Below are positions 1,406-13,400 of a stretch of 57,188 nt of DNA, in pieces. Made by a program: the position numbers and the translations under genes. Under the pieces are notes generated by a model. That model saw only the letters and a program-made list of their open reading frames with translations. It did no database searches and was not told the DNA's origin. The DNA is from a virus (Duplodnaviria; Heunggongvirae; Uroviricota; Caudoviricetes). Positions within the stretch are counted from its first letter, which is position 1; every line of letters starts with the position of its first letter. The stretch is from IMG/VR virus record IMGVR_UViG_2657245570_000014. One strand, 5' to 3'.

Positions 1406-1544
1406 GATTCCTCCTTGCTGCCAGTCGCAACCATTTTTTATCAACCAGGCTGGCGGTATATCCGAGCAGTGTTGGTATTTCGGATGGTTTCAGCTCAGGC
1501 CTACGCTTACGACGATTTGGTACTTTGTAGATGTGTCCGTTCAT
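1398..1544 (-). CDS. ninE: NinE-like protein
   Basis: C-terminal RKRRPELKPSEIPTLLGYTASLVDKKWLRLAARR resembles the NinE basic C-terminus; the longer ORF (to 1604) would read across the element junction, so the start is placed at Met 1544. Confidence 0.55.
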   Translation of the reverse strand: MNGHIYKVPNRRKRRPELKPSEIPTLLGYTASLVDKKWLRLAARRNHG

Positions 1545-1550
1545 GACACG

Positions 1551-1556
1551 AATAAG
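1551..1556. repeat. Left copy of the flanking direct repeat AATAAG (putative target-site duplication)
   Basis: AATAAG immediately outside the TG terminus; identical hexamer at 38787..38792. Confidence 0.6.
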
Positions 1557-1634
1557 TGATGCGCCGCGCGATAAATGCACTCTATCTTGTGCGATAAATG
1601 GCATCCACGCGGCGTTTCATTATTTGAAAAAGAA

Positions 1635-2207
1635 TTACATTTCAGGTTGCGTTATGACAGTCCCAACAGGGTGATAGCGGTAGATCGTTGACAGTCCAAT
1701 ATCATAGATAATTGCCAGCCGCTTTCTGTCATACCCTTTCTGGAGCAATCTTGCGATCTGCTCATGCTGCTCCTTCGTCAGTTTCGGGCGACGTCCTCCA
1801 ACTCTTCCTTGTGCTCGCGCAGCAGCCAGTCCTGCCAGCGTGCGCTCAACTATCAGTTCACGCTCCATTTCTGCCAGTGCACCCATCATATGAAAAAAGA
1901 ACCTTCCCATCGGAGTGCTGGTATCGATTGAATCCGTCAGACTGCGAAAATTGACACCTTTTGCGCGTAGCTCTTCTGTGAGAGCAATGAGGTGTTTCAT
2001 TCTTCTACCCAACCGATCCAGCTTCCAGACCACCAATGTATCCCCTCTTTTAAGGCACTTTAAAGCGCGTTTCAGGCCTGGTCGTTCCGACTTGGTTCCG
2101 CTCATTTTGTCCTCAAAAATCTGTTCACATCCTGCGCACATTAATGCATTGCGTTGCAAATCTGTGTTTTGGTCATTTGTTGACACACGTATGTAGCCAA
2201 TCAGCAT
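1635..2207 (-). CDS. pin: Serine recombinase / DNA invertase (Pin/Gin/Hin family)
   Basis: N-terminal MLIGYIRVSTNDQNTDLQ resolvase catalytic domain and C-terminal HTH; sits beside the tail fiber cassettes; start taken at internal Met. Confidence 0.9.
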   Translation of the reverse strand: MLIGYIRVSTNDQNTDLQRNALMCAGCEQIFEDKMSGTKSERPGLKRALKCLKRGDTLVVWKLDRLGRRMKHLIALTEELRAKGVNFRSLTDSIDTSTPMGRFFFHMMGALAEMERELIVERTLAGLAAARAQGRVGGRRPKLTKEQHEQIARLLQKGYDRKRLAIIYDIGLSTIYRYHPVGTVITQPEM

Positions 2208-2263
2208 TAAAAATACTCCCTTTTGAGTGGTTAAAGTACTGAGATAATGTGGGGAGGATTTGA

Positions 2264-2289
2264 GAGATAAACGTTGGTTTGGGGGAAGG
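2264..2289 (+). other. Putative invertase crossover site 1 (hix/gix-like)
   Basis: GAGATAAACGTTGGTTTGGGGGAAGG; the AAAC-NN-GGTTT core resembles Hin/Gin sites; the same sequence block recurs at 2778 and inverted at 4389. Confidence 0.5.
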
Positions 2290-2782
2290 CTCTGCACTGC
2301 CTGTTGGTGTGCCTGTTCCATGGCCCACCGCCACACCGCCAGCAGGCTGGTTAAAGTGCGACGGGCGCGCCTTTACAAAAGAACAATATCCTGTTCTGGC
2401 CAGAGTCTACCCGACCCTCCGTCTTCCCGATTTACGCGGTGAGTTTATCCGTGGATGGGACGACGGGCGCAAAGTTGATACGGGGCGTTCATTGCTAAGT
2501 GGTCAGGCTGCAACATTTATTCGTACAGCTTTGCAGGATTATTACGGTTACGATCTGAATACTAATGTCAAAGTAGGTATCGCTTTTGCTACTGCTGATT
2601 CTGTTATAACCGTTGGAAACCCAGCTAATCCTAAAGCAGGAAATAATAGCGATTATGTTCCTGCATCAGCAGATAACTCTATAACGGGTATTCAAAGGAC
2701 AGCGGAGGATAATTTTACCGGGGCATGGATATCAATGCGCCCCCGCAATGTTGCGTTTAATTACATCGTAAGGGCCGCATAA
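2279..2782 (+). CDS. Silent tail fiber C-terminal cassette 1 (no own promoter or ATG start)
   Basis: First ~70 aa (GEGSALPVGVPVPWPTATPPAGWLKCDGRAFTKEQYPVLARVYPTLRLPDLRGEFIRGWDDGRK) almost identical to an internal segment of the active fiber; shared C-terminal NYIVRA; ORF starts at TTG. Confidence 0.7.
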   Translation: MGEGSALPVGVPVPWPTATPPAGWLKCDGRAFTKEQYPVLARVYPTLRLPDLRGEFIRGWDDGRKVDTGRSLLSGQAATFIRTALQDYYGYDLNTNVKVGIAFATADSVITVGNPANPKAGNNSDYVPASADNSITGIQRTAEDNFTGAWISMRPRNVAFNYIVRAA

Positions 2783-2803
2783 AAACGTTGGTTTGGGGGA
2801 AGG
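2778..2803 (+). other. Putative invertase crossover site 2
   Basis: CATAAAAACGTTGGTTTGGGGGAAGG, a direct repeat of site 1. Confidence 0.5.
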
Positions 2804-3266
2804 CTCTGCATTGCCTGTTGGTGTACCGGTTCCATGGCCCACCGCCACACCGCCAGCAGGCTGGTTACAGTGCAACGGAGCTACGTTCACCAAAGAACAA
2901 TATCCTGTTCTGGCCAGAGTCTACCCGACCCTCCGTCTTCCCGATTTACGCGGTGAGTTTATCCGTGGATGGGACGACGGGCGCAAGATTGACGAGGGGC
3001 GTAAGTTGCTTTCATGGCAGAAAGGTACACTGGTCGGCGGTCATGACGATAACGATTCTTCGCTTGATATCTCGTACATGAGTAACGGAAATAATATTGA
3101 CTATGGCGGCGATAAGGTGTTTGCGGGGAATTACCGTAGCGATTATTTGTGGTACGTAATTCTGGGAGGAACAAACAGTCGCGCAAAAGCCGAATTAAAC
3201 GGAGCATTCTTTAACATAACCCGCCCCCGCAATATCGCGTTTAACTATATCGTGAGGGCGGCGTGA
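2793..3266 (+). CDS. Silent tail fiber C-terminal cassette 2
   Basis: Same conserved 70-aa leader and C-terminal NYIVRAA as cassette 1 and the active fiber, with a distinct central region. Confidence 0.7.
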   Translation: MGEGSALPVGVPVPWPTATPPAGWLQCNGATFTKEQYPVLARVYPTLRLPDLRGEFIRGWDDGRKIDEGRKLLSWQKGTLVGGHDDNDSSLDISYMSNGNNIDYGGDKVFAGNYRSDYLWYVILGGTNSRAKAELNGAFFNITRPRNIAFNYIVRAA

Positions 3267-3272
3267 TACCGT

Positions 3273-3887
3273 TCAACTGGCAAGTGCCAGTGGCGCTTCC
3301 GGCCAGCTGATTTCAGGTGCCGTGCTGATATCCAGTGCGTTCAGCTCGTCGATATAATCCAGCACGGCGTTCAGTTTTGCCGTTTCTTCTGGTGTCAGAC
3401 TGCGACCAGCACGCAGTTTGAGGTTGATAAGATCGACTGACGCCATCGCCTGTTTCACCCGTTGCTGGCGTTGCTGTCTGGCAACCTCCAGTTCTGCGGC
3501 TCGCTGCCGTTCAGTATCGGTTACCCACGCCTCACCGTTCCAGGTATCCCATGGCGTGGCTGGCTGTTTTGTGGTGGTGTCCGCCGGGTAATCACCCGGT
3601 TGGGTAATCAGAACAGGGTTACCGTTCTCCGTGCTGTATACCGTCTCGCCGCGGTGATCAGGCACATGCTCCCACCCGTTCAGCGTGGCAGTCCGGCAAA
3701 CCACGTAACCCGAAATTGCCTCCGGCGGTGCATCGGCGCACGAATGTGCCGGAGTACCCACCCCAAGGGCGAGATACTCCACAGAGGATGAGGTGTATTC
3801 CCGGGTTTCCTCGTCATAGTGATATACAGTGATATCGCCCGCTACAGTGGCGATACCGTTTTCATCCAGAACTGCAGTGTTACTCAT
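3273..3887 (-). CDS. Tail fiber assembly protein (Tfa)
   Basis: 204 aa directly downstream of the fiber gene; N-terminal Tfa-like region MSNTAVLDENGIATVAGDITVYHYDEETREYTSSSVEYLALGVG. Confidence 0.85.
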   Translation of the reverse strand: MSNTAVLDENGIATVAGDITVYHYDEETREYTSSSVEYLALGVGTPAHSCADAPPEAISGYVVCRTATLNGWEHVPDHRGETVYSTENGNPVLITQPGDYPADTTTKQPATPWDTWNGEAWVTDTERQRAAELEVARQQRQQRVKQAMASVDLINLKLRAGRSLTPEETAKLNAVLDYIDELNALDISTAPEISWPEAPLALAS

Positions 3888-5560
3888 TAAACTGCCCTCA
3901 CAATGTAATTAAGTGCAATGCTACGGGGTCTGACAGTGATACCCTTCGCATACCCGCTTCTGATAGAGGTCAGAATAGTAGCCTGCATACCATTGTCTGA
4001 CATTGCCACGACAGGATCGCTGAATGTTGTCCCGTCCGGCATTTTAAAGCTGCCCTCACGAAGGTCTGTAATGGAATCTTCATTGTTGAATCCCATGCCG
4101 ACTATCCCCGAGGTTCCCGTAGTGTCCTGGTTATAATAATCCAGCATTGCTGTTCTTAACAGCGTTGCCCCTTGTGCGGACAGCAACTTACGTCCTGTAT
4201 CAACTTTGCGCCCGTCGTCCCATCCACGGATAAACTCACCGCGTAAATCGGGAAGACGGAGGGTCGGGTAGACTCTGGCCAGAACAGGATATTGTTCTTT
4301 TGTAAAGGCGCGCCCGTCGCACTTTAACCAGCCTGCTGGCGGTGTGGCGGTGGGCCATGGAACCGGTACACCAACAGGCAATGCAGAGCCTTCCCCCAAA
4401 CCAAGGTAATTGAGGACATCTTTTATACTGCCCTTAGCGATAATAGCGCGACCAATAGCTGTAAGGGTTGCCAGCGCTGCGCGGTCTGCTCCGGTAAAAT
4501 AAGGCAACCGATCTGCTGCAGTGGCAAGTCCTGCCAGAGCAGTGAGCGTGGCATCTGCCGGTTGTTTTCCGTTTGCCAGATCGTATGCAGCCTTGACCGC
4601 TTTCGGTGTGGCGGCCAGTATTTCAGACGTGCTGTTGATAGCACTGCTCAGTTGTACGGTGCCTTTTGCCGTCAGCGAGGCAGCAGGCACTCCCGTTATC
4701 TGACTCCACGGGTGAGTGTGGCTGACGGGCGCCTTGCCGGCTGCAAGGTCGTATGCAGCCTTGACCGCCTTCGGCGTGGCAGCCTCAATTTCTGATTGAC
4801 TGTCCGTGGCGCTGCTCAGTTGTACGGTGCCTTTTGCCGTCAGTGAAGCCGCAGGCACTCCCGTTATCTGACTCCACGGGTGAGTGTGGCTGGCAGGCGC
4901 CTTGCCGGCTGCCAGGTCGTATGCAGCCTTGACCGCTTTCGGTGTGGCGGCCAGTATTTCAGACGTGCTGTTGATGGCACTGCTCAGTTGTACGGTGCCT
5001 TTTGCCGTCAGCGAGGCAGCTGGCACTCCCGTTATCTGACTCCACGGGTGAGTGTGGCTGACGGGCGCCTTGCCGGCTGCAAGGTCGTATGCAGCCTTGA
5101 CCGCCTTCGGCGTGGCAGCCTCAATTTCTGATTGACTGTCCGTGGCGCTGCTCAGTTGTACGGTGCCTTTTGCCGTCAGTGAAGCCGCAGGCACTCCCGT
5201 TATCTGACTCCACGGGTGAGTGTGGCTGGCAGGCGCCTTGCCGGCTGCCAGGTCGTATGCAGCCTTGACCGCTTTTGGTGTGGCGGCCAGCGTTTCAGAG
5301 GTGCTGTTGGTGGCACTGCTCAGTTGGGTGAACCCCTTAGCTGTCAGTGTCGCGTCCGGGTGGTTACGGGAACGTACGTGTTCAGCCAGTGACTGTGCGG
5401 CTTCCTCCGTTTTCTTCTTCAGCCATTTCGTCCTGTTTGCCAGTTGCCGGGGGGCTCGATTTGATATCCCGTCTGCACCACCCAGAACCGGATCTGATGT
5501 CTCCAGTTGATAGATATTTTCTTCCCACTTTTCTGTTTCATTCAGGTTTCCCATAATCAA
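3887..5560 (-). CDS. Tail fiber protein (constant N-terminus, tandem repeats, currently expressed C-terminal variant)
   Basis: 557 aa; repeated 56-aa units (SHTHPWSQITGVPAASLTAKGTVQLSS...); C-terminal part shares the cassette leader. Confidence 0.9.
   Translation of the reverse strand: MIMGNLNETEKWEENIYQLETSDPVLGGADGISNRAPRQLANRTKWLKKKTEEAAQSLAEHVRSRNHPDATLTAKGFTQLSSATNSTSETLAATPKAVKAAYDLAAGKAPASHTHPWSQITGVPAASLTAKGTVQLSSATDSQSEIEAATPKAVKAAYDLAAGKAPVSHTHPWSQITGVPAASLTAKGTVQLSSAINSTSEILAATPKAVKAAYDLAAGKAPASHTHPWSQITGVPAASLTAKGTVQLSSATDSQSEIEAATPKAVKAAYDLAAGKAPVSHTHPWSQITGVPAASLTAKGTVQLSSAINSTSEILAATPKAVKAAYDLANGKQPADATLTALAGLATAADRLPYFTGADRAALATLTAIGRAIIAKGSIKDVLNYLGLGEGSALPVGVPVPWPTATPPAGWLKCDGRAFTKEQYPVLARVYPTLRLPDLRGEFIRGWDDGRKVDTGRKLLSAQGATLLRTAMLDYYNQDTTGTSGIVGMGFNNEDSITDLREGSFKMPDGTTFSDPVVAMSDNGMQATILTSIRSGYAKGITVRPRSIALNYIVRAV
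4389..4413 (-). other. Putative invertase crossover site 3 (inverted relative to sites 1 and 2)
   Basis: Reverse complement reads TCAATTACCTTGGTTTGGGGGAAGG. Confidence 0.5.
4550..5350. repeat. Tandem coding repeats in the tail fiber gene (336-bp period, about 2.5 copies, each made of two 56-aa sub-repeats)
   Basis: Near-identical protein repeats and near-identical antisense ORFs offset by 336 bp (4562.. and 4880..). Confidence 0.85.
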
Positions 5561-6135
5561 CTGCTCCCGTGGTTATAACTGCCATCATGGATGGCGGTAT
5601 TGTTATAGCGAATGGCCACAGACTGATACTCCAGGCTGGCCAGATGGCAGCGGGCCGGTGCAAATGCAGCCAGCGTCTGACGCAGCATCGCGGCCTGATC
5701 GTTAGTAATGGGCTGTTTCAGAATAACGCGATAAACTGCCCAGGCGGCTGCATCTCCATGAACAAACAGTCCGTTATAGCTGCGATTGCCGTCGTAACTG
5801 AGACGACCTGTGCCTTCAATCAGATCCACTTCACCAAAGCCAAAACGGCGGATAACTTCCCGGATTGACCACGGCGTCCCTTTATACCGGTGCAGTTCGA
5901 TGGCTGCTTTTATAAGCATGCGGCGAACATCGTCCGATTCCGCCAGCTCCCAGCCATCGCCAGACAGTGAGAACTGCTCGCCCAGCCATGGCAGCGCAGA
6001 ACTGTCGACGATATCGACGAGAAAGACCATCAGTACGCTCAGGTCGATGTTATCCAGCCGTCCTGCCAGTCTTCCCAGCGTCCTGAGACTGATATCACCC
6101 TCAAGCGGTGGCGGGAGTTGTAATGGCTCAGTCAT
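5557..6135 (-). CDS. Baseplate protein (P2 gpI-like)
   Basis: 192 aa immediately upstream of the tail fiber, downstream of baseplate J; position matches P2 I. Confidence 0.7.
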   Translation of the reverse strand: MTEPLQLPPPLEGDISLRTLGRLAGRLDNIDLSVLMVFLVDIVDSSALPWLGEQFSLSGDGWELAESDDVRRMLIKAAIELHRYKGTPWSIREVIRRFGFGEVDLIEGTGRLSYDGNRSYNGLFVHGDAAAWAVYRVILKQPITNDQAAMLRQTLAAFAPARCHLASLEYQSVAIRYNNTAIHDGSYNHGSS

Positions 6136-7231
6136 CAGACACTCCAGTCATGTTAAGAGTGATTGCCGTACAGTTTGCCCATTCGTTTTCTGCCACCACC
6201 CTCAGTGCCGGTGTCACCAGTTCAACCTGGTACACCCCGGAAACGGACAATGCACTGATAATCTGGCTGGGGACAATATCACGCCCCAGCGTGGCGGCAC
6301 GTGATGCCACCCAGTTCTGTATGGCGCTGTTAGCGGCATCTTTTACAGACCTGGCATCCTGATCACGATAGATCGTAATCCTGGCTTCAATGGTGTAATC
6401 CACCTTCACTGGTGTTTTAGCCCGCACTGTATCAGTGAGTGGCCTGACTTTCTCATCAGAGCAGAAACTCTCTACCAGCGTGAGAACACCGCCGTCCGGC
6501 AGACCGGTACTGAGCAGCGGATACAGATCTACGGTCCCGGGAACCGGGGAAAGCACAGCAACATCGACAATGTTGGGATGGGCCTGCATGGCATGAAAGC
6601 GGTATGCGCCACGGCTTCCGGCATTGGTGAATGACTCCGGGGCCAGCCTGATACGCTCCCGGAGCCTGTCATCGTCTTCCTGTTCTGAACCGCCGGAACT
6701 GGCCGTCAGATTGCTCACCAGCAGGTCGACGTTATCAATCTCATCGAGTAACTGACTGACCTGCGCAGGTTGCCAGCCGTTACCAGCGGTACCGGGTTCG
6801 GTACAGGTGGACGTGACATTGACCAGCAGCAATCCGGCCTTCAGTACCACATCTGTATCGGTGGCAAAAATAACGCTGTCGGAAGCGCTGACGCGGGTGC
6901 CTGCCGGGATCAGCACATCAATGGCCAGTGCCTCATCTACGGAGAACTGGAGCGTGGTGGTGGCAGGCTGCGCGGCAAGACGGTATACACCAACCAGTTC
7001 ACCGAGGTAATCAATCATCGGCTCACGGGCAAAGGCGACCAGATTCTGCTTTGCTGCCTCCTGTACCGCAACCCTGACCAGCATTTCGCGATAGGCCCAC
7101 AGATCAATCAGCAGACGTTCTGCCTGTGCCGGGTACAGCGTTTTGCCGGTATCCGCTTCATACTTCGCAATCATTTCTGCCGTGATTTTGTCGGCATCGC
7201 GTTCAATAAAATCGGGTTCTGTCAGCGCCAT
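6128..7231 (-). CDS. Baseplate protein J-like
   Basis: 367 aa; position between W-like and I-like genes. Confidence 0.8.
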   Translation of the reverse strand: MALTEPDFIERDADKITAEMIAKYEADTGKTLYPAQAERLLIDLWAYREMLVRVAVQEAAKQNLVAFAREPMIDYLGELVGVYRLAAQPATTTLQFSVDEALAIDVLIPAGTRVSASDSVIFATDTDVVLKAGLLLVNVTSTCTEPGTAGNGWQPAQVSQLLDEIDNVDLLVSNLTASSGGSEQEDDDRLRERIRLAPESFTNAGSRGAYRFHAMQAHPNIVDVAVLSPVPGTVDLYPLLSTGLPDGGVLTLVESFCSDEKVRPLTDTVRAKTPVKVDYTIEARITIYRDQDARSVKDAANSAIQNWVASRAATLGRDIVPSQIISALSVSGVYQVELVTPALRVVAENEWANCTAITLNMTGVSDD

Positions 7232-7569
7232 AGCAGCTCCTGAGTCCGGGTCTGTCCGTCTGAGCCTTTCCAGCTCACCCGGAGCGTAAGATGTTCGCCG
7301 TCGACGGCGGGTTTAACTGACATAAGCTGGCAGCGGGGCTCCCAGCGCCGGATGGCATCGACGGATTCGCGCACCACATGCGGAATGGCCCGGTCTACAG
7401 GCCAGTCGATATAAAGATGCAGATTGCTGCCGAACTCCGGGCGATGCGGGTCGCTGCCGCGGGGAGTCCGCAGGATAATTTGAATCGCCTGCCGGATATC
7501 ATCCAGCCCCCGGACAATTTCGCCGGGAGCCTGCAGGGCTGGTTGCCAGAATACTGAGGTCGTTTTCAT
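7222..7569 (-). CDS. Baseplate wedge protein W (gp25-like)
   Basis: 115 aa; typical size and position. Confidence 0.75.
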   Translation of the reverse strand: MKTTSVFWQPALQAPGEIVRGLDDIRQAIQIILRTPRGSDPHRPEFGSNLHLYIDWPVDRAIPHVVRESVDAIRRWEPRCQLMSVKPAVDGEHLTLRVSWKGSDGQTRTQELLWR

Positions 7570-7623
7570 GGGGGCAGTATTGCCCCCGTGCGGGAACGCT
7601 GATATTAAAGGCGTTTAAGAAGC

Positions 7624-8220
7624 TCAGTGGGAGTGGTGGCTGGAGTTTTCGCCATCAGACAGCATACTGCCCGTGGCATGGGCATTCCCTTTAATCTCGA
7701 TATTGCCATGGATGGTCGCGGTAACACCTTTACCACCAGAACCCGCCATGCCTCCTTCGTAAATCAGCTTTCCCCTGACACGCAGATCTCCGGTAAGTTC
7801 GGTTTCCGGTGCGTCAATCGTGGCTTTCTGTGTTTTCAATACCACATCAGCACCACACTCAATGACAATATGCTCAATGCCGCCCCGGATGGTCAGAGTG
7901 TGCGTCTTCCGGTTGTAGCTGTACTCTGCACCATCAGCAAACCGGGTTCCCCGGATATTTTTGTCACTGAACGGTGGTTTATCGACGTCTGAATACACCG
8001 CGCCCAGAATAACACCATCCTCGCCGTTGGCATCGAGCAGCACCTCAACCTGCTCCCCCACGTCAGGGAGCCAGTAATCTTTGTTATCCTGGGTATTACG
8101 CTGCAGCACGTTAAGCCAGTTTGTGCGCAGGTTATCGCATTCAGGCAGACGAACGCGGGCCTGAACCCTGTCGGCATCAACGGCACTGACCGTACCGACC
8201 TGACGAGTGACACCAGTCAT
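7624..8220 (-). CDS. Baseplate spike / assembly protein V-like
   Basis: 198 aa; position between D and W. Confidence 0.7.
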   Translation of the reverse strand: MTGVTRQVGTVSAVDADRVQARVRLPECDNLRTNWLNVLQRNTQDNKDYWLPDVGEQVEVLLDANGEDGVILGAVYSDVDKPPFSDKNIRGTRFADGAEYSYNRKTHTLTIRGGIEHIVIECGADVVLKTQKATIDAPETELTGDLRVRGKLIYEGGMAGSGGKGVTATIHGNIEIKGNAHATGSMLSDGENSSHHSH

Positions 8221-9371
8221 TTTTTCTTCTCCTTAATCACCGTCGATGTACTGCCATCCGGGTGATAAACCGTGAGTTTCTGAGTTTTTTGTTTTTTCCC
8301 TCTTGTGACTGGCCCCCGTGCCACTTCCAGCTCTGTGGTGTAGCCGCTGTTACGGTCAAACGCATGGCGGGCAGTGGTTATGAGCCATGGCCCGGATAAC
8401 TGCCCAAAACCCACCAGTTCAATTTTGTTGCCTGCTGTCAGTTGAGGTGTTCCCGTCAGCGTCAGGGAGCCGTTCTGCTGGTATTCGTTATGTCTGGCCA
8501 GTGCTGAATCCGCTTTAATCCGGGCACTGTCCGGGTCGCTGACGCGGCTGTTAACTTTAAGTGAGTCAGCGCTGGTAACCTTACCACCTTTGAGCTTTTT
8601 GTCGCTTTCACGGGTACCACCATCAGCTTCGTGGACGATCAGTTTTTTACTGCTGCTTTTCTGGTGTTTTACCTTTGCAGATTTATAGACCCGGTTGATG
8701 GTGTCACGCAGGGAAAAGCGGGCCACATCCTGCGGTTTTAACTGCCTGACCGTCTCCTGACTGCGCAGTGTGGCCAGATGAGAAAAAATCAGCTGGTCAC
8801 TGACCACTTTCACTGCATAACCATACTCGCTGGCCAGCCGGCGCAGAAAACCCACGTCGGTTTCAGCATACTGGGTCACCCGGTCGATTCTGATGGACTC
8901 AATGCTGCCCACCAGTTTCAGCCGGTGCTTTCTGGCAATCCGCCCCGCAACAGCTGCCAGCGTGGTGTTCTCAAAACCACGGCTGGATTTAGTCCGCAGA
9001 GCACTGTTAACCGAGGTGGCCACCCCACGGATAGAAACAACGGAAGCGGGCGAACTCACTTCGATCTCGTCTATAGAGAACGTACCGCAGGACAGCAGCT
9101 TCTCGCCCTGATAGCCCATTTTCAGCGTCAGCGTGTCACCCTTGCCCGGATACCACTTATCCAGCCAGCGGCCATCGGTGTCGTCCAGCTCCACCTCAAT
9201 GGTATCGGACTCATTTTTGATGTTATCGCTCCAGGTCACACGGGTGACATAAGGCGCGATATCAGAGGTGATGTTTTTCTGCAGATACCACAGAGTGAAC
9301 ACCGGTGTCAGCACATCGCTGACGCCGGTTAACGCTGATGTGACTTGCGCAGTGCTGTTTATCTCAGCCAT
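8217..9371 (-). CDS. Tail protein D-like (late control D family)
   Basis: 384 aa; position after X/U; start overlaps upstream gene. Confidence 0.75.
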   Translation of the reverse strand: MAEINSTAQVTSALTGVSDVLTPVFTLWYLQKNITSDIAPYVTRVTWSDNIKNESDTIEVELDDTDGRWLDKWYPGKGDTLTLKMGYQGEKLLSCGTFSIDEIEVSSPASVVSIRGVATSVNSALRTKSSRGFENTTLAAVAGRIARKHRLKLVGSIESIRIDRVTQYAETDVGFLRRLASEYGYAVKVVSDQLIFSHLATLRSQETVRQLKPQDVARFSLRDTINRVYKSAKVKHQKSSSKKLIVHEADGGTRESDKKLKGGKVTSADSLKVNSRVSDPDSARIKADSALARHNEYQQNGSLTLTGTPQLTAGNKIELVGFGQLSGPWLITTARHAFDRNSGYTTELEVARGPVTRGKKQKTQKLTVYHPDGSTSTVIKEKKK

Positions 9372-9574
9372 GGGGCAATATCCTCTTCTGTACGGGCTTC
9401 TTCAGTCTCAATCACCGGGATCAGTAACAACAGCCCGGAGGGCAGCACCGGCGTGATGGCCACGTGCGGATTGGCGGCAATAATCCGGGGATAGCCCAGC
9501 GGGTCACCGTAGTACTGCCATGCCAGCGAATCCCAGCGCTCTCCGTCACGGGTAACATGTTCAAGAAACATCAC
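9359..9574 (-). CDS. Tail protein X-like
   Basis: 71 aa between U-like and D-like genes. Confidence 0.65.
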   Translation of the reverse strand: MMFLEHVTRDGERWDSLAWQYYGDPLGYPRIIAANPHVAITPVLPSGLLLLIPVIETEEARTEEDIAPWLR

Positions 9575-10455
9575 ACACTCCTCGTCAGTATTCTGGCGGC
9601 CATTGCACTTAATCCCGGAGACATGCGGTTGAATGCTGTGCCGGCGGCGTTAAGCTGCCCGGAAACGGTATCCAGAGCACCTGCAATATTTCTTTTGTCC
9701 ACACCACTCAGCGCAGACTGTGCCTGCTGTACATACGTGGCTGCTTCGCTGGCTGTTCTGGCCAGACTGATGGCATCGGGCATGGATTCAGAGAGTGCGT
9801 TAAACGCCGGAACACTTTTCCCCAGAGCCCCGGAGATATTACCCAGTCCGCTCATCAGCCCCGGCACACGGGTCAGTGCGACAACGGGGTTATCCTTCAT
9901 TTTCTGTGTCACCCGAACGGCGCTGATAGTGGTCTGGAGTACAGACTGCGCCTGTTTCGCATAGTTGACGCCGTTGCGGATGAACTGCGCCACCCCTGAA
10001 GGTGAAGGAATGGCACCGGAGACCGCCCCGACACCCGGGAGCTTCGTGCGTATTGCCGGTGGTTGCAGAGGATTTTTCGGATCACCGGTGTATTCCCGGA
10101 GAGACACGGTGGCACTGACAGCCAGCACGTTACCGGTGCTGTCTGTCTGCTCGCTGGTTGCGGTCACATCGGTAATCACGAACCAGCCACGATAGTCACC
10201 GTTGCCGAAGACCAGCGCCAGTGCCTGATGGGCTTTCATGGCTGTTCGCAGTCTCGCCAGCTCCACATCGGGTACACAATAATGCTGATGGAAAACCAGA
10301 GTTATCTGGATTTCGTCCAGCCTGTCGCCGACGAACTGCAGGCCAGGCTTACCCCCGATGCGGGCATGCTCCGCATAATCGACGCCGAACGTGGCCTCGA
10401 AGCCGTCCCAGTAGGTAATCAGCTCAAACTCAATATCACCCAGTACGGCAAACAT
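9571..10455 (-). CDS. Tail protein U-like (tail formation)
   Basis: 294 aa directly downstream of the tape measure gene. Confidence 0.65.
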   Translation of the reverse strand: MFAVLGDIEFELITYWDGFEATFGVDYAEHARIGGKPGLQFVGDRLDEIQITLVFHQHYCVPDVELARLRTAMKAHQALALVFGNGDYRGWFVITDVTATSEQTDSTGNVLAVSATVSLREYTGDPKNPLQPPAIRTKLPGVGAVSGAIPSPSGVAQFIRNGVNYAKQAQSVLQTTISAVRVTQKMKDNPVVALTRVPGLMSGLGNISGALGKSVPAFNALSESMPDAISLARTASEAATYVQQAQSALSGVDKRNIAGALDTVSGQLNAAGTAFNRMSPGLSAMAARILTRSV

Positions 10456-13400
10456 CAGCGGTACTCCTTACGTTGTTTCTGAGCCAGCAGACGCTCCAGC
10501 ATTTTTTCCAGCTCATGCAGGCTCATATTCAGGGCGCCAGTCAGTCCGGCAGGCGCTGTGGTTTCCCTGCCATTGAGGAAAAACTGAGGATTAAAGCTGA
10601 CCTGGATACCACCAGACGTTCCACCGCCGGTTGCAGCTGCACCACGGCCTGAATATCCGGCAGCCAGGATTTCAGGCGAGGGGATACGGGGAACATCCGG
10701 TGTCATCTCATTTGCCAGACGTTGCCCTGGTAAAATCGATGCCCGGGTGGAGAGCGGAATAGCGGGCATGGAAGACAAACTATTGATTACGGCTCCGATC
10801 GCATTTTTAGCAGACGACATAAACCCATTGATATCGGGCAACGGCATACTGAAGCGAACACCTGAAGTGTTATCCCGTATTTCTGGCCCCTGAATGCTCA
10901 CGGGCATTTTGGGGAGCAGTTCACTGGCCATTCGCTGCCCGGCCAGAGCTGCAAGCGGAGTGGTCCGCTGCAGGCCAATGGCGGCCCCCTGCGCGATATT
11001 GTCACCAAAGCCCATAAACACGCGGCTCGGCGAATGAATGCCCAGCTTTTCGCTGAACCAGCCACTGATGCTGTCACCCATTCCGGTTACACTGGATTTG
11101 AGCGACCCCCATTTGTTTTTGATACCGTTAATCAGACCGTCGACAAGATGGCCACCGAAGTCGGTGAACTTTGCCGGCAGATCAACACCAAGATATTTCA
11201 GCGCAGCTGCAAAGGCTTTATAGAGCAGACCTGCCGGCGACCAGTTAATCAGCAGCTTACCAGTTCCCGCGATACCGCCGTTAAAGGCTTCCTGAATGTC
11301 AGCCCAGCACTGTTTAAACCAGCTACTGATGCTGTCACCCATTCCGGTTACACTGGATTTGAGCGACCCCCATTTGTTTTTGATACCGTTAATCAGACCG
11401 TCGATAAGATGGCCACCGAAGTCGGTGAACTTTGCCGGCAGAGCAACGCCGAAATATTTCAGCGCAGCCGCAAAGGCTTTATAGAGCAGGCCTGCCGGCG
11501 ACCAGTTAATCAGCAACTTACCAGTTCCCGCGATACCGCCGTTAAAGGCTTCCTGAATGTCAGCCCAGCACTGTTTAAACCAGCTACTGATGCTGTCACC
11601 CATTCCGGTTACACTGGATTTGAGCGACCCCCATTTGTTTTTGATACCGTTAATCAGACCGTCGATAAGATGGCCACCGAAGTCGGTGAACTTTGCCGGC
11701 AGAGCAACGCCGAAATATTTCAGCGCAGCCGCAAAGGCTTTATAGAGCAGGCCTGCCGGCGACCAGTTAATCAGCAACTTACCAATTCCCACAATGCCGC
11801 CGTTAAAGGCTTCCTGAATGTCTGCCCAGCGCTGTTTAAACCAGCCACTGACTGCCCCCCAGTTGCGGTAGATAAGGTAAGCTGCTGCCGCGACAGCGGT
11901 GATAACGAGACCGATGGGATTCATCATCAGCGCACGTCCAATCCAGAGAACAGCACGTCCGGCGAGCATAATTCCGCGAACCAGCCCCCCGGAGAGCACG
12001 CCACTCAGTGTTCTGGCTCCTTTGGCGACGGCGCTAAATCCGGTCACCAGCCAGCGGAGCTTACCGCCTTGCCCCAGTGCGAGCGACAGACGAAGCCAGT
12101 TGGCCCGAAGTAAAACAGCATTTTTCCAGACACTTACAAAGGGGGAAATAAGGAGATTCAGCCCCAGTTTGAGACCAACAGTCGCTATCTTAATCGCAAG
12201 GAGCGCACTGATGAGCTTAAAAGCCCCACTGACAAATTGCGGGTGAGTCGCTACCCAGTGTTTTGCCCCCTGAATGAGTGGAAGCAGTTCCTGAGTCAGA
12301 GAAATAAAAGATGGAGCTAATTGATCGCCCAGCGTAATTGCCAGATCACGACTGCTGACCATAAGTGCTTTAGTGGCTTCAAGGGGAGATTTCAGCCGCT
12401 GATCATAAGCACTGGCAAGCAAATCGTTATCCGCAGCCCTGAGAGCACCGGCACGGATCTCTCGATATCTGTCCATGTTGGCCAGCATCGGGCGGATAAA
12501 TGCCATGACCTGCATATCCGCGAACATATCGCCCAGACCAAAGTTTTTCGCCAGAGCCTGAAGTGCCTCATCTCTTGCCGTATCATTCTTTATTTTCATG
12601 GCTGATTTGAAGCCGGCCAGCGCTTCGGGGCTTTTGGCATTGAGGTAACGTTCTATAACACTCAACATCCCTTCAATCGGAGAGATCCCCGCAGCTTTAT
12701 AACTCGCAATAGATCCCTGCAAATCAATACCCAGATCAGCAAACTGTTTCTGAGTATCGCGGGCAAAAATTTTGGTAAGAAAGTTTTTAAAATTATTGGC
12801 TGCTTCGTCGGTGGAACCTGCACCGATTTTTGCTATCTGGAGACTGGCCCCGATTTCAGCAACAGCCTCTTTTCCACTGGCAATACCCGCCATCATTGGG
12901 GCCAGGGACTGCATCCACTTGACCTGATCCGGGATTTCAAATGACCCCTGGTCACCGGCATAAGCCATAATATTCTGAACGGCACCAAAATCTCTGGCCG
13001 CACCTTTCAGGGAGTTTTGCCAGACTGCGGCCACTTTTGCCCAGTCCTGAGCAGACGTGCGTGTTGCCGTTGCCGCGCGGGCAATATCCGGCATCAGAAA
13101 ACCGATATCTGACACATTATCAATATTGTCGCTGATGAGTGAACCCACCGCCTCCTGCAGCTCATCCTGATACTGATTGTATTTAAGCGCCCAGCCTTTT
13201 ATCTGTCCGGCAAGTGCATCCCGCGTTTTATTGTCATATTTTGCGGTGATCGACATATCAATCATTTTGTCCTGAAAAGACATGGACTGCTGAACGGCAG
13301 GGGAAACCGTATGATAAACAGTCTGTGCCATGCCATACGCTTCAATCCCCTGACCATACAGCGCCATGCGGTTAGCTTTCAGCGCATCACTGGTAGCGGA

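Follow-up and report, generated by a model that had tools for sequence, protein, structure and literature searches.

Can the tail fiber gene at the right end of a Mu-like prophage be joined to more than one C-terminal end, and does the invertase gene beside it do the joining? A sequence-only reading of the 57,188-nt stretch of DNA analyzed here (the window) had proposed that it can, by inversion. Our analysis makes us confident that the locus works as an active switch of the Gin/Pin type, driven by site-specific inversion, at the prophage right end, with four DNA isomers encoding three fibers. The host element is a 37.2-kb Mu-like transposable prophage (1557–38786), recognized from its ends and its genes: AATAAG is duplicated at 1551–1556 and 38787–38792, the prophage end (TGATGCGCCGCGCG...) abuts nine different host contexts, and the genes include an rve transposase, an AAA ATPase, Portal_Mu, Gam, GemA and Mor. 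This prophage family is widespread in E. coli, ST131 included.

The gene next to the proposed sites (1635–2207, minus strand) encodes a 190-aa serine recombinase of the Gin/Pin/Cin/Hin group, as had been read from its translation. It carries the Pfam Resolvase (E 8e-51) and HTH_7 (E 1e-12) domains, matches the PDB structures of Gin (4m6f, E 2e-93; 3uj3, E 1e-92) and is 77% identical to Mu Gin, 76% to PinE of e14 and 86% to the invertase of the P2-like prophage of enteropathogenic E. coli (EPEC). Its Ser9, in the motif RVSTNDQ, aligns with the catalytic serine of Gin, and the intact invertase, including Ser9, is kept at 99.8–100% identity in every copy compared. In the Gin and Hin genes, the recombinational enhancer lies within the gene. 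The 5′ end of the window’s invertase gene likewise holds a putative Fis-dependent enhancer (2123–2186; gene nt 22–85). Among the window, EPEC, pinE and gin genes, synonymous-codon identity is 0.58 over codons 6–36 versus 0.37 elsewhere (Mann-Whitney p = 0.0016), and all four share G-N13-C motifs at gene nt 22–36, found by scan, and at nt 71–85, found by eye (GCGCAGGATGTGAAC in the window). Both the synonymous conservation and the motif fit are consistent with an enhancer, though the 5′ ends of genes are also subject to other constraints; the switch may depend on Fis and on this element.

The 19-mer TTGGTTTGGGGGAAGGCTC occurs three times in the 57-kb window (2274–2292 and 2788–2806 on the plus strand, 4386–4404 on the minus strand), and no further copy appears with three mismatches allowed; none would be expected by chance. 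Two plus-strand copies and one inverted copy are what had been described, although the starts then given for the plus-strand pair, 2264 and 2778, were about 10 nt off, the third (4389) being correct. The coding homology anticipated downstream of each site was also found, at 229–274 nt and 90–92% identity 3′ of each 19-mer copy. One pair of inverted arms (2271–2544 and 4134–4407) spans 274 nt at 90% identity and the other (2785–3013 and 4179–4407) 229 nt at 92%, and the direct pair (2269–2496 and 2783–3010) spans 228 nt at 91%.

Alignment of the three sites defined the crossover dinucleotide. Each site is 26 bp long, with imperfect dyad symmetry around a 2-bp core (TT/AA) set between AAACC/GGTTT half-sites, the arrangement of gix and pix sites. 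Site S1 (2262–2287, plus strand) reads GAGAGATAAACG TT GGTTTGGGGGAA, with its core at 2274–2275, and S2 (2776–2801, plus strand) reads CGCATAAAAACG TT GGTTTGGGGGAA, with its core at 2788–2789. S3 (4391–4416, minus strand) lies within the fiber gene in the opposite orientation to S1 and S2; on the plus strand it reads TTCCCCCAAACC AA GGTAATTGAGGA, with its core at 4403–4404. The inner halves of the three sites are identical and the outer halves are weaker. The outer half of S1 is the fixed flank on the invertase side, where the dock TTGAGAGATAAACG is constant in all loci compared and the sequence 3′ of the core varies with the cassette; that of S2 is the 3′ end of the first silent cassette. Next to S3, the constant-side dock TGTCCTCAATTACC is likewise fixed in all loci compared. 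One invertase thus has three sites and two overlapping invertible segments, of 2129 and 1615 bp.

The two silent cassettes proposed earlier have uninterrupted reading frames that match the frame of the fiber gene (3887–5560, minus strand) at the junction, with no frameshift. V1 (2276–2782, plus strand) has a collar-domain head to about 2544 followed by a variable tip; its open reading frame (2279–2782) matches the phage tail Collar domain (E 7e-16) and ends in a stop codon (2780–2782) within the outer half of S2. V2 (2790–3266, plus strand), with a collar head and a different tip, is open over 2793–3266 and also matches the Collar domain (E 1e-15). The cassette currently fused to the fiber, V3 (3887–4402, minus strand), consists of a collar head and tip of about 170 aa, and its collar part matches the tip of T4 gp37 (2xgf, E 2e-13) and a short tail fiber (9cuy). 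The tips match PDB entries solely through the collar domain, and receptor specificity therefore cannot be assigned from these matches. PGAP tags the silent cassettes ‘incomplete; missing N-terminus’. The constant N-terminal part (4405–5554, minus strand) matches Pfam Phage_fiber_2 in five stretches (E 7e-89), contains tandem shaft repeats of 168 nt (56 aa) at 4574–5326 and weakly matches the Mu fiber S (5yvq). The division into constant and variable parts had been drawn correctly, but the constant part measures about 385 aa and not 380.

A single tail fiber assembly gene, tfa, encodes 204 aa (3273–3887, minus strand; Pfam Caudo_TAP, E 4e-28), converges with V2 and overlaps the V3 stop codon with its ATG (TAATG). 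Its product is 60% identical to TfaE of e14 and 59% to the Tfa of the EPEC module, and a comparison with PDB sequences returned no match. The three cassettes have this one tfa among them, and the alternative ends have no tfa or U of their own. An assembly gene for each end is typical of the classic two-state systems (Mu, P1, e14), not defining of them.

Using natural isomers in public genomes in place of long-read data, we searched complete E. coli genomes for in-silico recombinant junctions that joined the constant part to V1 or V2. Both fusions are in frame, and both occur at 100% identity in single alignments, over 665 nt in at least 8 genomes for V1 and over 635 nt in at least 15 genomes for V2. 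E. coli genomes contain every one of the four isomers of this V1/V2/V3 set, with about 100% identity per segment. The window and locus L001 show state 1, L006 shows state 2, L005 and L007 show state 3, and L014 shows state 4. Written from the invertase side, the four arrangements are V1>V2>tfa<V3<, V1>V3>tfa>V2<, V3>tfa>V2<V1< and V2>tfa<V3<V1<. Annotated full-length fiber fusions are present in L005, L006, L007, L008 and L014. An assembly artifact was considered and rejected, as the window’s arrangement recurs in the independent complete genome carrying L001 and the other isomers recur in many genomes. Of the 5426 complete genomes, approximately 750–830 gave matches to the junction queries, at a median of three places each. 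Fusions to tfa-less tips were counted in up to 75 (V1), 81 (V2), 166 (X) and 158 (Y) genomes; these junction counts are upper bounds, since they also take in certain joins made of two pieces, for example state 4 under the constant–V3 query.

The exchange itself can be read from pairs of related loci. The ST131 aroA-site prophage (L003, L012 and L016–19) carries the same invertase and the same V3–tfa block as the window, and two near-identical isolates with this prophage, Esc7 and Esc26, have identical 2000-nt flanks around a 2040-nt segment between the outer sites that is the exact reverse complement of its counterpart. The exchange was conservative, with no bases gained or lost. Together with the PCR evidence from EPEC, the differing states of such closely matching isolates come nearest to showing isomers side by side in a clonal population. 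Across the loci compared, the three docks are invariant and cassette-specific SNPs travel with their cassettes. In L001 a variant V3 head, GGTTTAGGAG, abuts the constant dock, and in L003 it abuts a cassette-tail dock; these two junctions narrow the exchange down to the 7 nt TTGGTTT at the core. Together, the two perfect junctions, the four isomers and the exact Esc inversion bear out the proposal that inversion fuses the constant fiber to either cassette.

We propose that the serine invertase recombines S3 with S1 or S2, with strand exchange at the 2-bp core. Everything 3′ of the core, that is, the collar head and tip, then moves, and everything 5′ of it, that is, the constant fiber, the invertase flank and the V1 tail, stays. 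In this way the three sites yield four DNA isomers and three fiber proteins, the constant 385 aa followed by V3, V1 or V2. The window copy probably flips in its own host, given that relatives share its sites exactly and its invertase at 99.8–100% identity. As for the Mu G and e14 P segments, the switch may diversify the receptor specificity of virions released from a lysogen population, with a predicted effect on host range.

An account without the invertase, in which RecA-dependent homologous recombination between the 230–270-nt inverted repeats makes the isomers, is highly improbable. The arms are long enough for RecA, and the heads within a module have been homogenized: dS between the V1 and V3 heads is 0.10, and the window’s V3 head equals its V2 head over the first 60 nt, unlike the V3 head of L001. 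Gene conversion or homologous recombination therefore does act on the repeats. As a source of the isomers, however, it would scatter breakpoints over the arms and give mosaic heads at the junctions, whereas the SNPs closest to the site keep to their cassette, the docks remain with the flanks and the exchange falls within TTGGTTT. The conservation of an intact Ser9 invertase in every copy also stands against it, as does the match of the sites to the e14 Pin sites, where the neighboring pinE is credited with inversion. The cassettes might instead be relics of a fossil switch that no longer inverts, with V1 and V2 fibers non-functional for want of tfa. We consider this very unlikely, although there is just one tfa, V2 is never co-oriented with it, our scan of 1500–5700 found no tfa promoter for the alternative states, and PGAP calls the silent cassettes incomplete. 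Relics would not be expected to remain open and in frame or to show purifying selection on tfa-less tips (dN/dS 0.13 and 0.40, see below), nor would fusions to such tips be so common in genomes (up to the counts given above for V1, V2, X and Y). The one-tfa layout has moreover been kept in a P2-like prophage, whose Tfa is just 59% identical, and in a P1-like plasmid, where eight cassettes lack a tfa, and the inversion among the Esc isolates is both precise and recent.

Several sites and several alternative C-termini would also suit a strict R64-type shufflon, and Goldberg et al. call the EPEC module a ‘shufflon’ (PMC4272514), but we give this reading next to no chance. An R64-type shufflon has the Rci tyrosine recombinase act on sfx sites; the adjoining recombinase here is a serine resolvase/invertase, which refutes it, and the sites are of gix/pix type, with a 2-bp core between AAACC/GGTTT half-sites. 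A diversity-generating retroelement was rejected as well, there being no reverse transcriptase. We therefore favor the invertase-driven switch.

The layout of that switch bears on how each fiber obtains its chaperone, as tfa accompanies V3 in every isomer compared. The sequence-only reading held that tfa is rightly oriented only for the variant now expressed. For V2 this stands, since no isomer can place it in line with tfa. For V1 it does not: in state 4, seen in L014, the order is invertase (minus), V2 (plus), tfa (minus), V3 (minus), V1 (minus) and constant part (minus), which puts tfa downstream of, and co-oriented with, the fiber that expresses V1. V1 is thus co-oriented with tfa in one of its two expressing isomers, tfa lying on the co-transcribed side in state 4 and antisense in state 3. 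A promoter and terminator scan of 1500–5700 found no promoter for V3–tfa facing away from the fiber operon; its one weak promoter match lay on the wrong strand, and shuffled sequence gave more. With no tfa promoter found for the antisense states, fibers made in the V2 state and in one of the two V1 states may lack their chaperone. Judged by their divergence, the tfa-less tips are under purifying selection, with dN/dS of 0.13 for tip Y against tip Va of EPEC and 0.40 for V2 against X. It is conceivable, if rather doubtful, that the non-V3 collar tips need no dedicated chaperone to fold, or else that the switch controls the supply of chaperone as well. With a single tfa that stays linked to V3, the two V1 isomers differ in whether tfa is transcribed along with the fiber; if the switch does set chaperone supply, assembled and unassembled versions of the same fiber would result, a layer of chaperone control undescribed for Mu, P1 or e14.

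The design has precedents. The earlier suggestion that three alternatives go beyond the two-state switches of Mu and e14 and resemble multi-site systems holds for the three sites and four isomers, but such a system is not new. In the P2-like prophage of EPEC E2348/69, a three-repeat module has four variants and three C-termini that coexist, as established by PCR and sequencing (NC_011601, 1891695–1893703; Goldberg et al., 2014, PMC4272514). Like the window, that module has a constant fiber, three collar-head cassettes, a single tfa tied to one of them and an adjoining serine invertase, and it shares the site ACCTTGGTTTGGGGGAAGGCTCTGCA and the C-terminal motif RPRNIAFNYIVRA; its inverted segments are 2009 and 1577 bp long. 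The host phage differs, being P2-like in EPEC and Mu-like in the window, the constant fibers align over just a local stretch of 192 aa (61% identity), and the tip sets differ between EPEC and the window’s family, except that ST131 tip Y is much the same as EPEC tip Va. The e14 P segment of E. coli K-12, inverted by PinE, has near-identical crossover sites (...AAACC/G TT GGTTTGGGAGAAGG), and its stfE belongs to the same family of collar-head cassettes and ends in RPRNIAFNYIVRAA. e14, however, is a defective lambdoid element with two sites and two states, each with its own tfa (tfaP, tfaE). The Mu G segment and Gin likewise occupy the right end of a transposable phage, in the order fiber, invertible segment, invertase, and the AAACC..GGTTT half-sites of gix are related to those of the window. 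Mu differs in having two sites and an assembly gene for each variable part (U and U′), in S variable parts that are not collar-type and in carrying mom, as no mom gene follows the invertase in the prophage studied here; the window’s Tfa and U align over 69 aa with just 28% identity.

The Min cluster of p15B also has more than two crossover sites, through which one constant fiber part takes several 3′ ends. The same site sequence occurs nine times in the P1-like plasmid pKOr024_2, which carries eight collar cassettes in tandem, none with a tfa, together with a single tfa and a single fiber site. Unlike p15B and the P1-like plasmids, the window has three sites only, on a chromosomal Mu-like prophage. 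Existing knowledge of invertase switches is unchanged, the same design having been described already; the window adds a resolved three-site, four-isomer example on a Mu-like transposable prophage, for which public genomes alone sufficed to work out every isomer and locate the crossover. Such switches matter for phage host-range prediction and for annotation, since silent cassettes are routinely labeled pseudogenes.

Reversible inversions and translocations that alter tail fiber proteins were reported for invertase-carrying prophages of ST131 Bone isolates, with switches named in ‘Entero_P88’ and ‘Burkho_phiE255’ (bioRxiv 10.1101/2022.05.07.487787). Unlike the present analysis, that preprint leaves the sites, isomers and one-tfa layout unresolved; its ‘phiE255-like’ prophage is probably the ST131 aroA-site element. 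A fiber inversion in CP076386, beside smrA and an MFS transporter gene, was confirmed with long reads by Milman et al. (2023), and L007 has the same neighborhood, with smrA and the MFS transporter gene.

The region of the switch has, on the minus strand, a gpJ-like baseplate gene (6128-7231), a gpI-like gene (5557-6135), the tail fibre gene (3887-5554; Phage_fiber_2 repeats and a Collar domain) and the tail fibre assembly gene tfa (3273-3887; Caudo_TAP). On the plus strand lie two silent cassette ORFs, V2 (2793-3266; Collar domain and its own tip) and V1 (2279-2782; Collar domain and a tip unlike V2's), and a serine recombinase gene (1635-2207, minus strand) adds the invertase. The recombinase matches solved Mu Gin structures (E 2e-93), with Ser9 aligned to the catalytic serine; its sequence identity amounts to 77% with Gin, 76% with e14 PinE and 86% with the P2-like prophage invertase of EPEC E2348/69. 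The three repeated sites with downstream coding homology that the sequence-only reading described were recovered: the window contains the 19-mer TTGGTTTGGGGGAAGGCTC three times and no more, with up to three mismatches tolerated (2274-2292 and 2788-2806, plus; 4386-4404, minus), against an expectation of 0 in shuffled sequence. The coding homology that follows forms inverted arms at 2271-2544/4134-4407 (274 nt, 90%) and 2785-3013/4179-4407 (229 nt, 92%) and a direct pair at 2269-2496/2783-3010 (228 nt, 91%). By the Gin convention the fibre site, S3, is TTCCCCCAAACC-AA-GGTAATTGAGGA (4391-4416, core 4403-4404); S1 (core 2274-2275) and S2 (core 2788-2789) have the inner half-site in common with S3 and a weaker outer half, and the V1 stop codon falls within the outer half of S2. 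That reading had placed the two plus-strand sites about 10 nt off, its site coordinates being right elsewhere.

Inversion was assessed from public complete genomes, taken as natural experiments, by building recombinant junctions in silico and seeking them in E. coli genomes. The constant N-terminal fibre part joined at the core to V1 or V2 keeps its reading frame up to the stop codon. For both junctions, constant-V1 (665 nt) and constant-V2 (635 nt), many E. coli genomes give a single alignment that is 100% identical. Moreover, all four arrangements possible with three sites exist for the window's cassette set, every segment at ~100% identity. Writing INV for the invertase, V3 for the cassette now fused to the fibre, CONST for the constant part and arrowheads for orientation, these are INV< V1> V2> TFA< V3< CONST< (state 1; the window and L001, one of the loci fetched for comparison), INV< V1> V3> TFA> V2< CONST< (state 2; L006), INV< V3> TFA> V2< V1< CONST< (state 3; L005 and L007) and INV< V2> TFA< V3< V1< CONST< (state 4; L014). 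Three docks on the fixed side of the core stay immobile, namely the invertase flank TTGAGAGATAAACG, the V1 tail GCCGCATAAAAACG and the constant fibre TGTCCTCAATTACC, while SNPs that mark a cassette immediately 3′ of the core travel with that cassette. The V3 variant head GGTTTAGGAG… abuts the constant dock in L001 and a cassette-tail dock in L003, which confines the exchange to 7 nt, TTGGTTT, core included.

The ST131 prophage beside aroA is the same prophage, with the same invertase protein, the V3-tfa block and a further two tips, designated X and Y. Two arrangements of it occur: INV< X> TFA< V3< Y< CONST< (L003, L004, Esc7) and INV< Y> V3> TFA> X< CONST< (R14, strain 751, Esc21, Esc23, Esc26). 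The genomes of the Esc isolates measure 5,156,481-5,156,537 bp; Esc7 and Esc26 agree exactly in both 2000-nt flanks, and the 2040-nt stretch bounded by the outer sites in one is precisely the reverse complement of that in the other. This difference is a conservative site-specific inversion in one strain background. The natural junctions, the four isomers and this pair support the proposal that inversion fuses the constant fibre to other tips.

A Gin/Pin-type switch is the best explanation of these data. The invertase would synapse S3 with S1 or S2 and exchange strands at the TT/AA core, swapping the fibre's collar head together with its tip. Invertases of this family do not usually resolve directly oriented sites, here S1 and S2, which explains the retention of V1 between them. 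Two-cassette versions lacking exactly the S1-S2 segment (V1) occur in both orientations in L002 (CE10) and L008 (Iso00225); they look like precise S1-S2 loss, consistent with rare deletion between directly repeated sites. The L008 copy of the prophage disrupts irp2, a yersiniabactin gene. A putative Fis-dependent enhancer, expected by homology, is suggested within the 5′ part of the invertase gene: four such genes compared show a synonymous-codon identity of 0.58 in codons 6-36 versus 0.37 elsewhere (p = 0.0016), and G-N13-C motifs are kept at gene nt 22-36 and 71-85.

The switch belongs to an already known class of system. The closest relative, the three-repeat EPEC module, has the same layout, single tfa included, and its repeat starts ACCTTGGTTTGGGGGAAGGCTCTGCA (Goldberg et al., PMC4272514). 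Over the 16-mer formed by core and inner half, the e14 Pin sites depart from those here at a single base (TTGGTTTGGGAGAAGG versus TTGGTTTGGGGGAAGG); e14 stfE belongs to the same cassette family and TfaE has 60% identity to the window Tfa, making the earlier label 'Pin-type' apt. P1-like phage-plasmids carry up to nine such crossover places per record: pKOr024_2 (L015, NZ_CP147095.1, locus 5378-13053) has nine sites of the same sequence, one in the fibre gene and the others in a tandem row of eight. One strand bears eight tfa-less cassettes in tandem, the opposite strand bears the fibre gene and a single tfa, and a serine invertase adjoins them. This P1-like cluster is the present-day equivalent of Min on p15B. 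Fibre-gene switching has also been described in invertase-bearing ST131 prophages (preprint, bioRxiv 10.1101/2022.05.07.487787). The anatomy of the present switch is unusually well resolved from public data, but a specialist would find the system unsurprising.

The gene tfa is physically tied to V3 through an overlapping stop/start (TAATG) and moves along with it. The sequence-only reading credited a correctly oriented tfa to the currently expressed variant alone; a refinement is that state 4 places tfa co-oriented ~0.5 kb downstream of a V1-expressing fibre. In state 3 (V1 expressed) and state 2 (V2 expressed) tfa is antisense; no arrangement gives V2 a tfa in cis, and a scan of 1500-5700 found no promoter-like site able to express it in the antisense states. 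Several lines of evidence argue that the tfa-less tips are not decaying: they are open reading frames; tip dN/dS is 0.13 for Y versus the EPEC tip Va and 0.40 for V2 versus X; one tfa with several tfa-less cassettes is a layout conserved both in the P2-like prophage, despite a Tfa identity of just 59%, and in the P1-like plasmid with its eight tfa-less cassettes; and fusions of the fibre to such tips are common among genomes, numbering, as upper bounds, 75 (V1), 81 (V2), 166 (X) and 158 (Y), compared with 283 for V3. Given an active switch, folding without a dedicated chaperone is about an even prospect. Use of the single Tfa through the common C-terminal motif, RPR(N/S)(I/V)A(F/L)NYIVRA(A/V), with which V1, V2 and V3 all close, is a more tentative reading, and that these tips yield defective fibres is unlikely.

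The cassettes' conserved C-terminus may be under DNA-level constraint too, since the last codons of every cassette (…GTG AGG GCx…; 3884-3905 in V3, 2768-2782 in V1, 3252-3266 in V2) hold a Shine-Dalgarno-like GAGG/AGGG, ~8 nt ahead of the tfa ATG in V3, where stop and start overlap. At the other end, the window's V3 head equals the V2 head over 60 nt (2276-2335, 2790-2849 and 4343-4402 compared), whereas that of L001 differs; V1/V3 head dS is 0.10 within the module, whereas between modules heads are far apart, as for Y and EPEC Va (dS 1.7), two cassettes whose tips are close (dS 0.34). These comparisons, which involved the window, L001, L003 and L009, show collar heads evolving in concert within a module and point to gene conversion among the heads, with tips exchanged horizontally. 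The fibre shaft (4574-5326) holds 4.5 copies of a 168-nt (56-aa) repeat, arranged as 2.2 x 336 nt at 98% identity, and its length varies with repeat copy number, as fibres range from 445 to 664 aa across otherwise near-identical prophages (L002, L001, L006, L007, L008, L005). PGAP labels silent cassettes 'incomplete; missing N-terminus' pseudogenes (L001, L003, L004, L012, L013, L016-L019) and splits the repeat-rich fibre gene into fragments in several ST131 genomes, yet the ORF translates intact; pseudogene counts in these prophages are thus inflated.

A Mu-like transposable prophage of 37.2 kb (1557-38786), which encodes an rve transposase, MuB-like ATPase, Mu-type portal, Gam, GemA and Mor, bears the switch at its right end. 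Copies of a duplicated AATAAG flank the prophage (1551-1556, 38787-38792), and its end TGATGCGCCGCGCG… abuts nine different host contexts among the fetched loci: fabI, aroA, ybjC, cysM, dgcM, irp2, yehY, a prophage remnant in CE10 and, in the window, a lambdoid nin region. Unlike in Mu, early (30.5-38.6 kb, plus) and late genes (28-1.6 kb, minus) are divergently transcribed. The Mu-like prophage is nested in the nin region of another, lambdoid, element, flanked by a truncated ninE (1398-1604) and a weak NinB-like ORF (38804-39259; Pfam NinB E 4e-4, under the gathering score). Between that ORF and replication gene P (43706-44407), the lambdoid prophage carries a 1302-aa intimin/invasin-like inverse autotransporter (39558-43466, minus; IAT_beta and five Big_1/Invasin_D3 repeats), which looks like prophage cargo.
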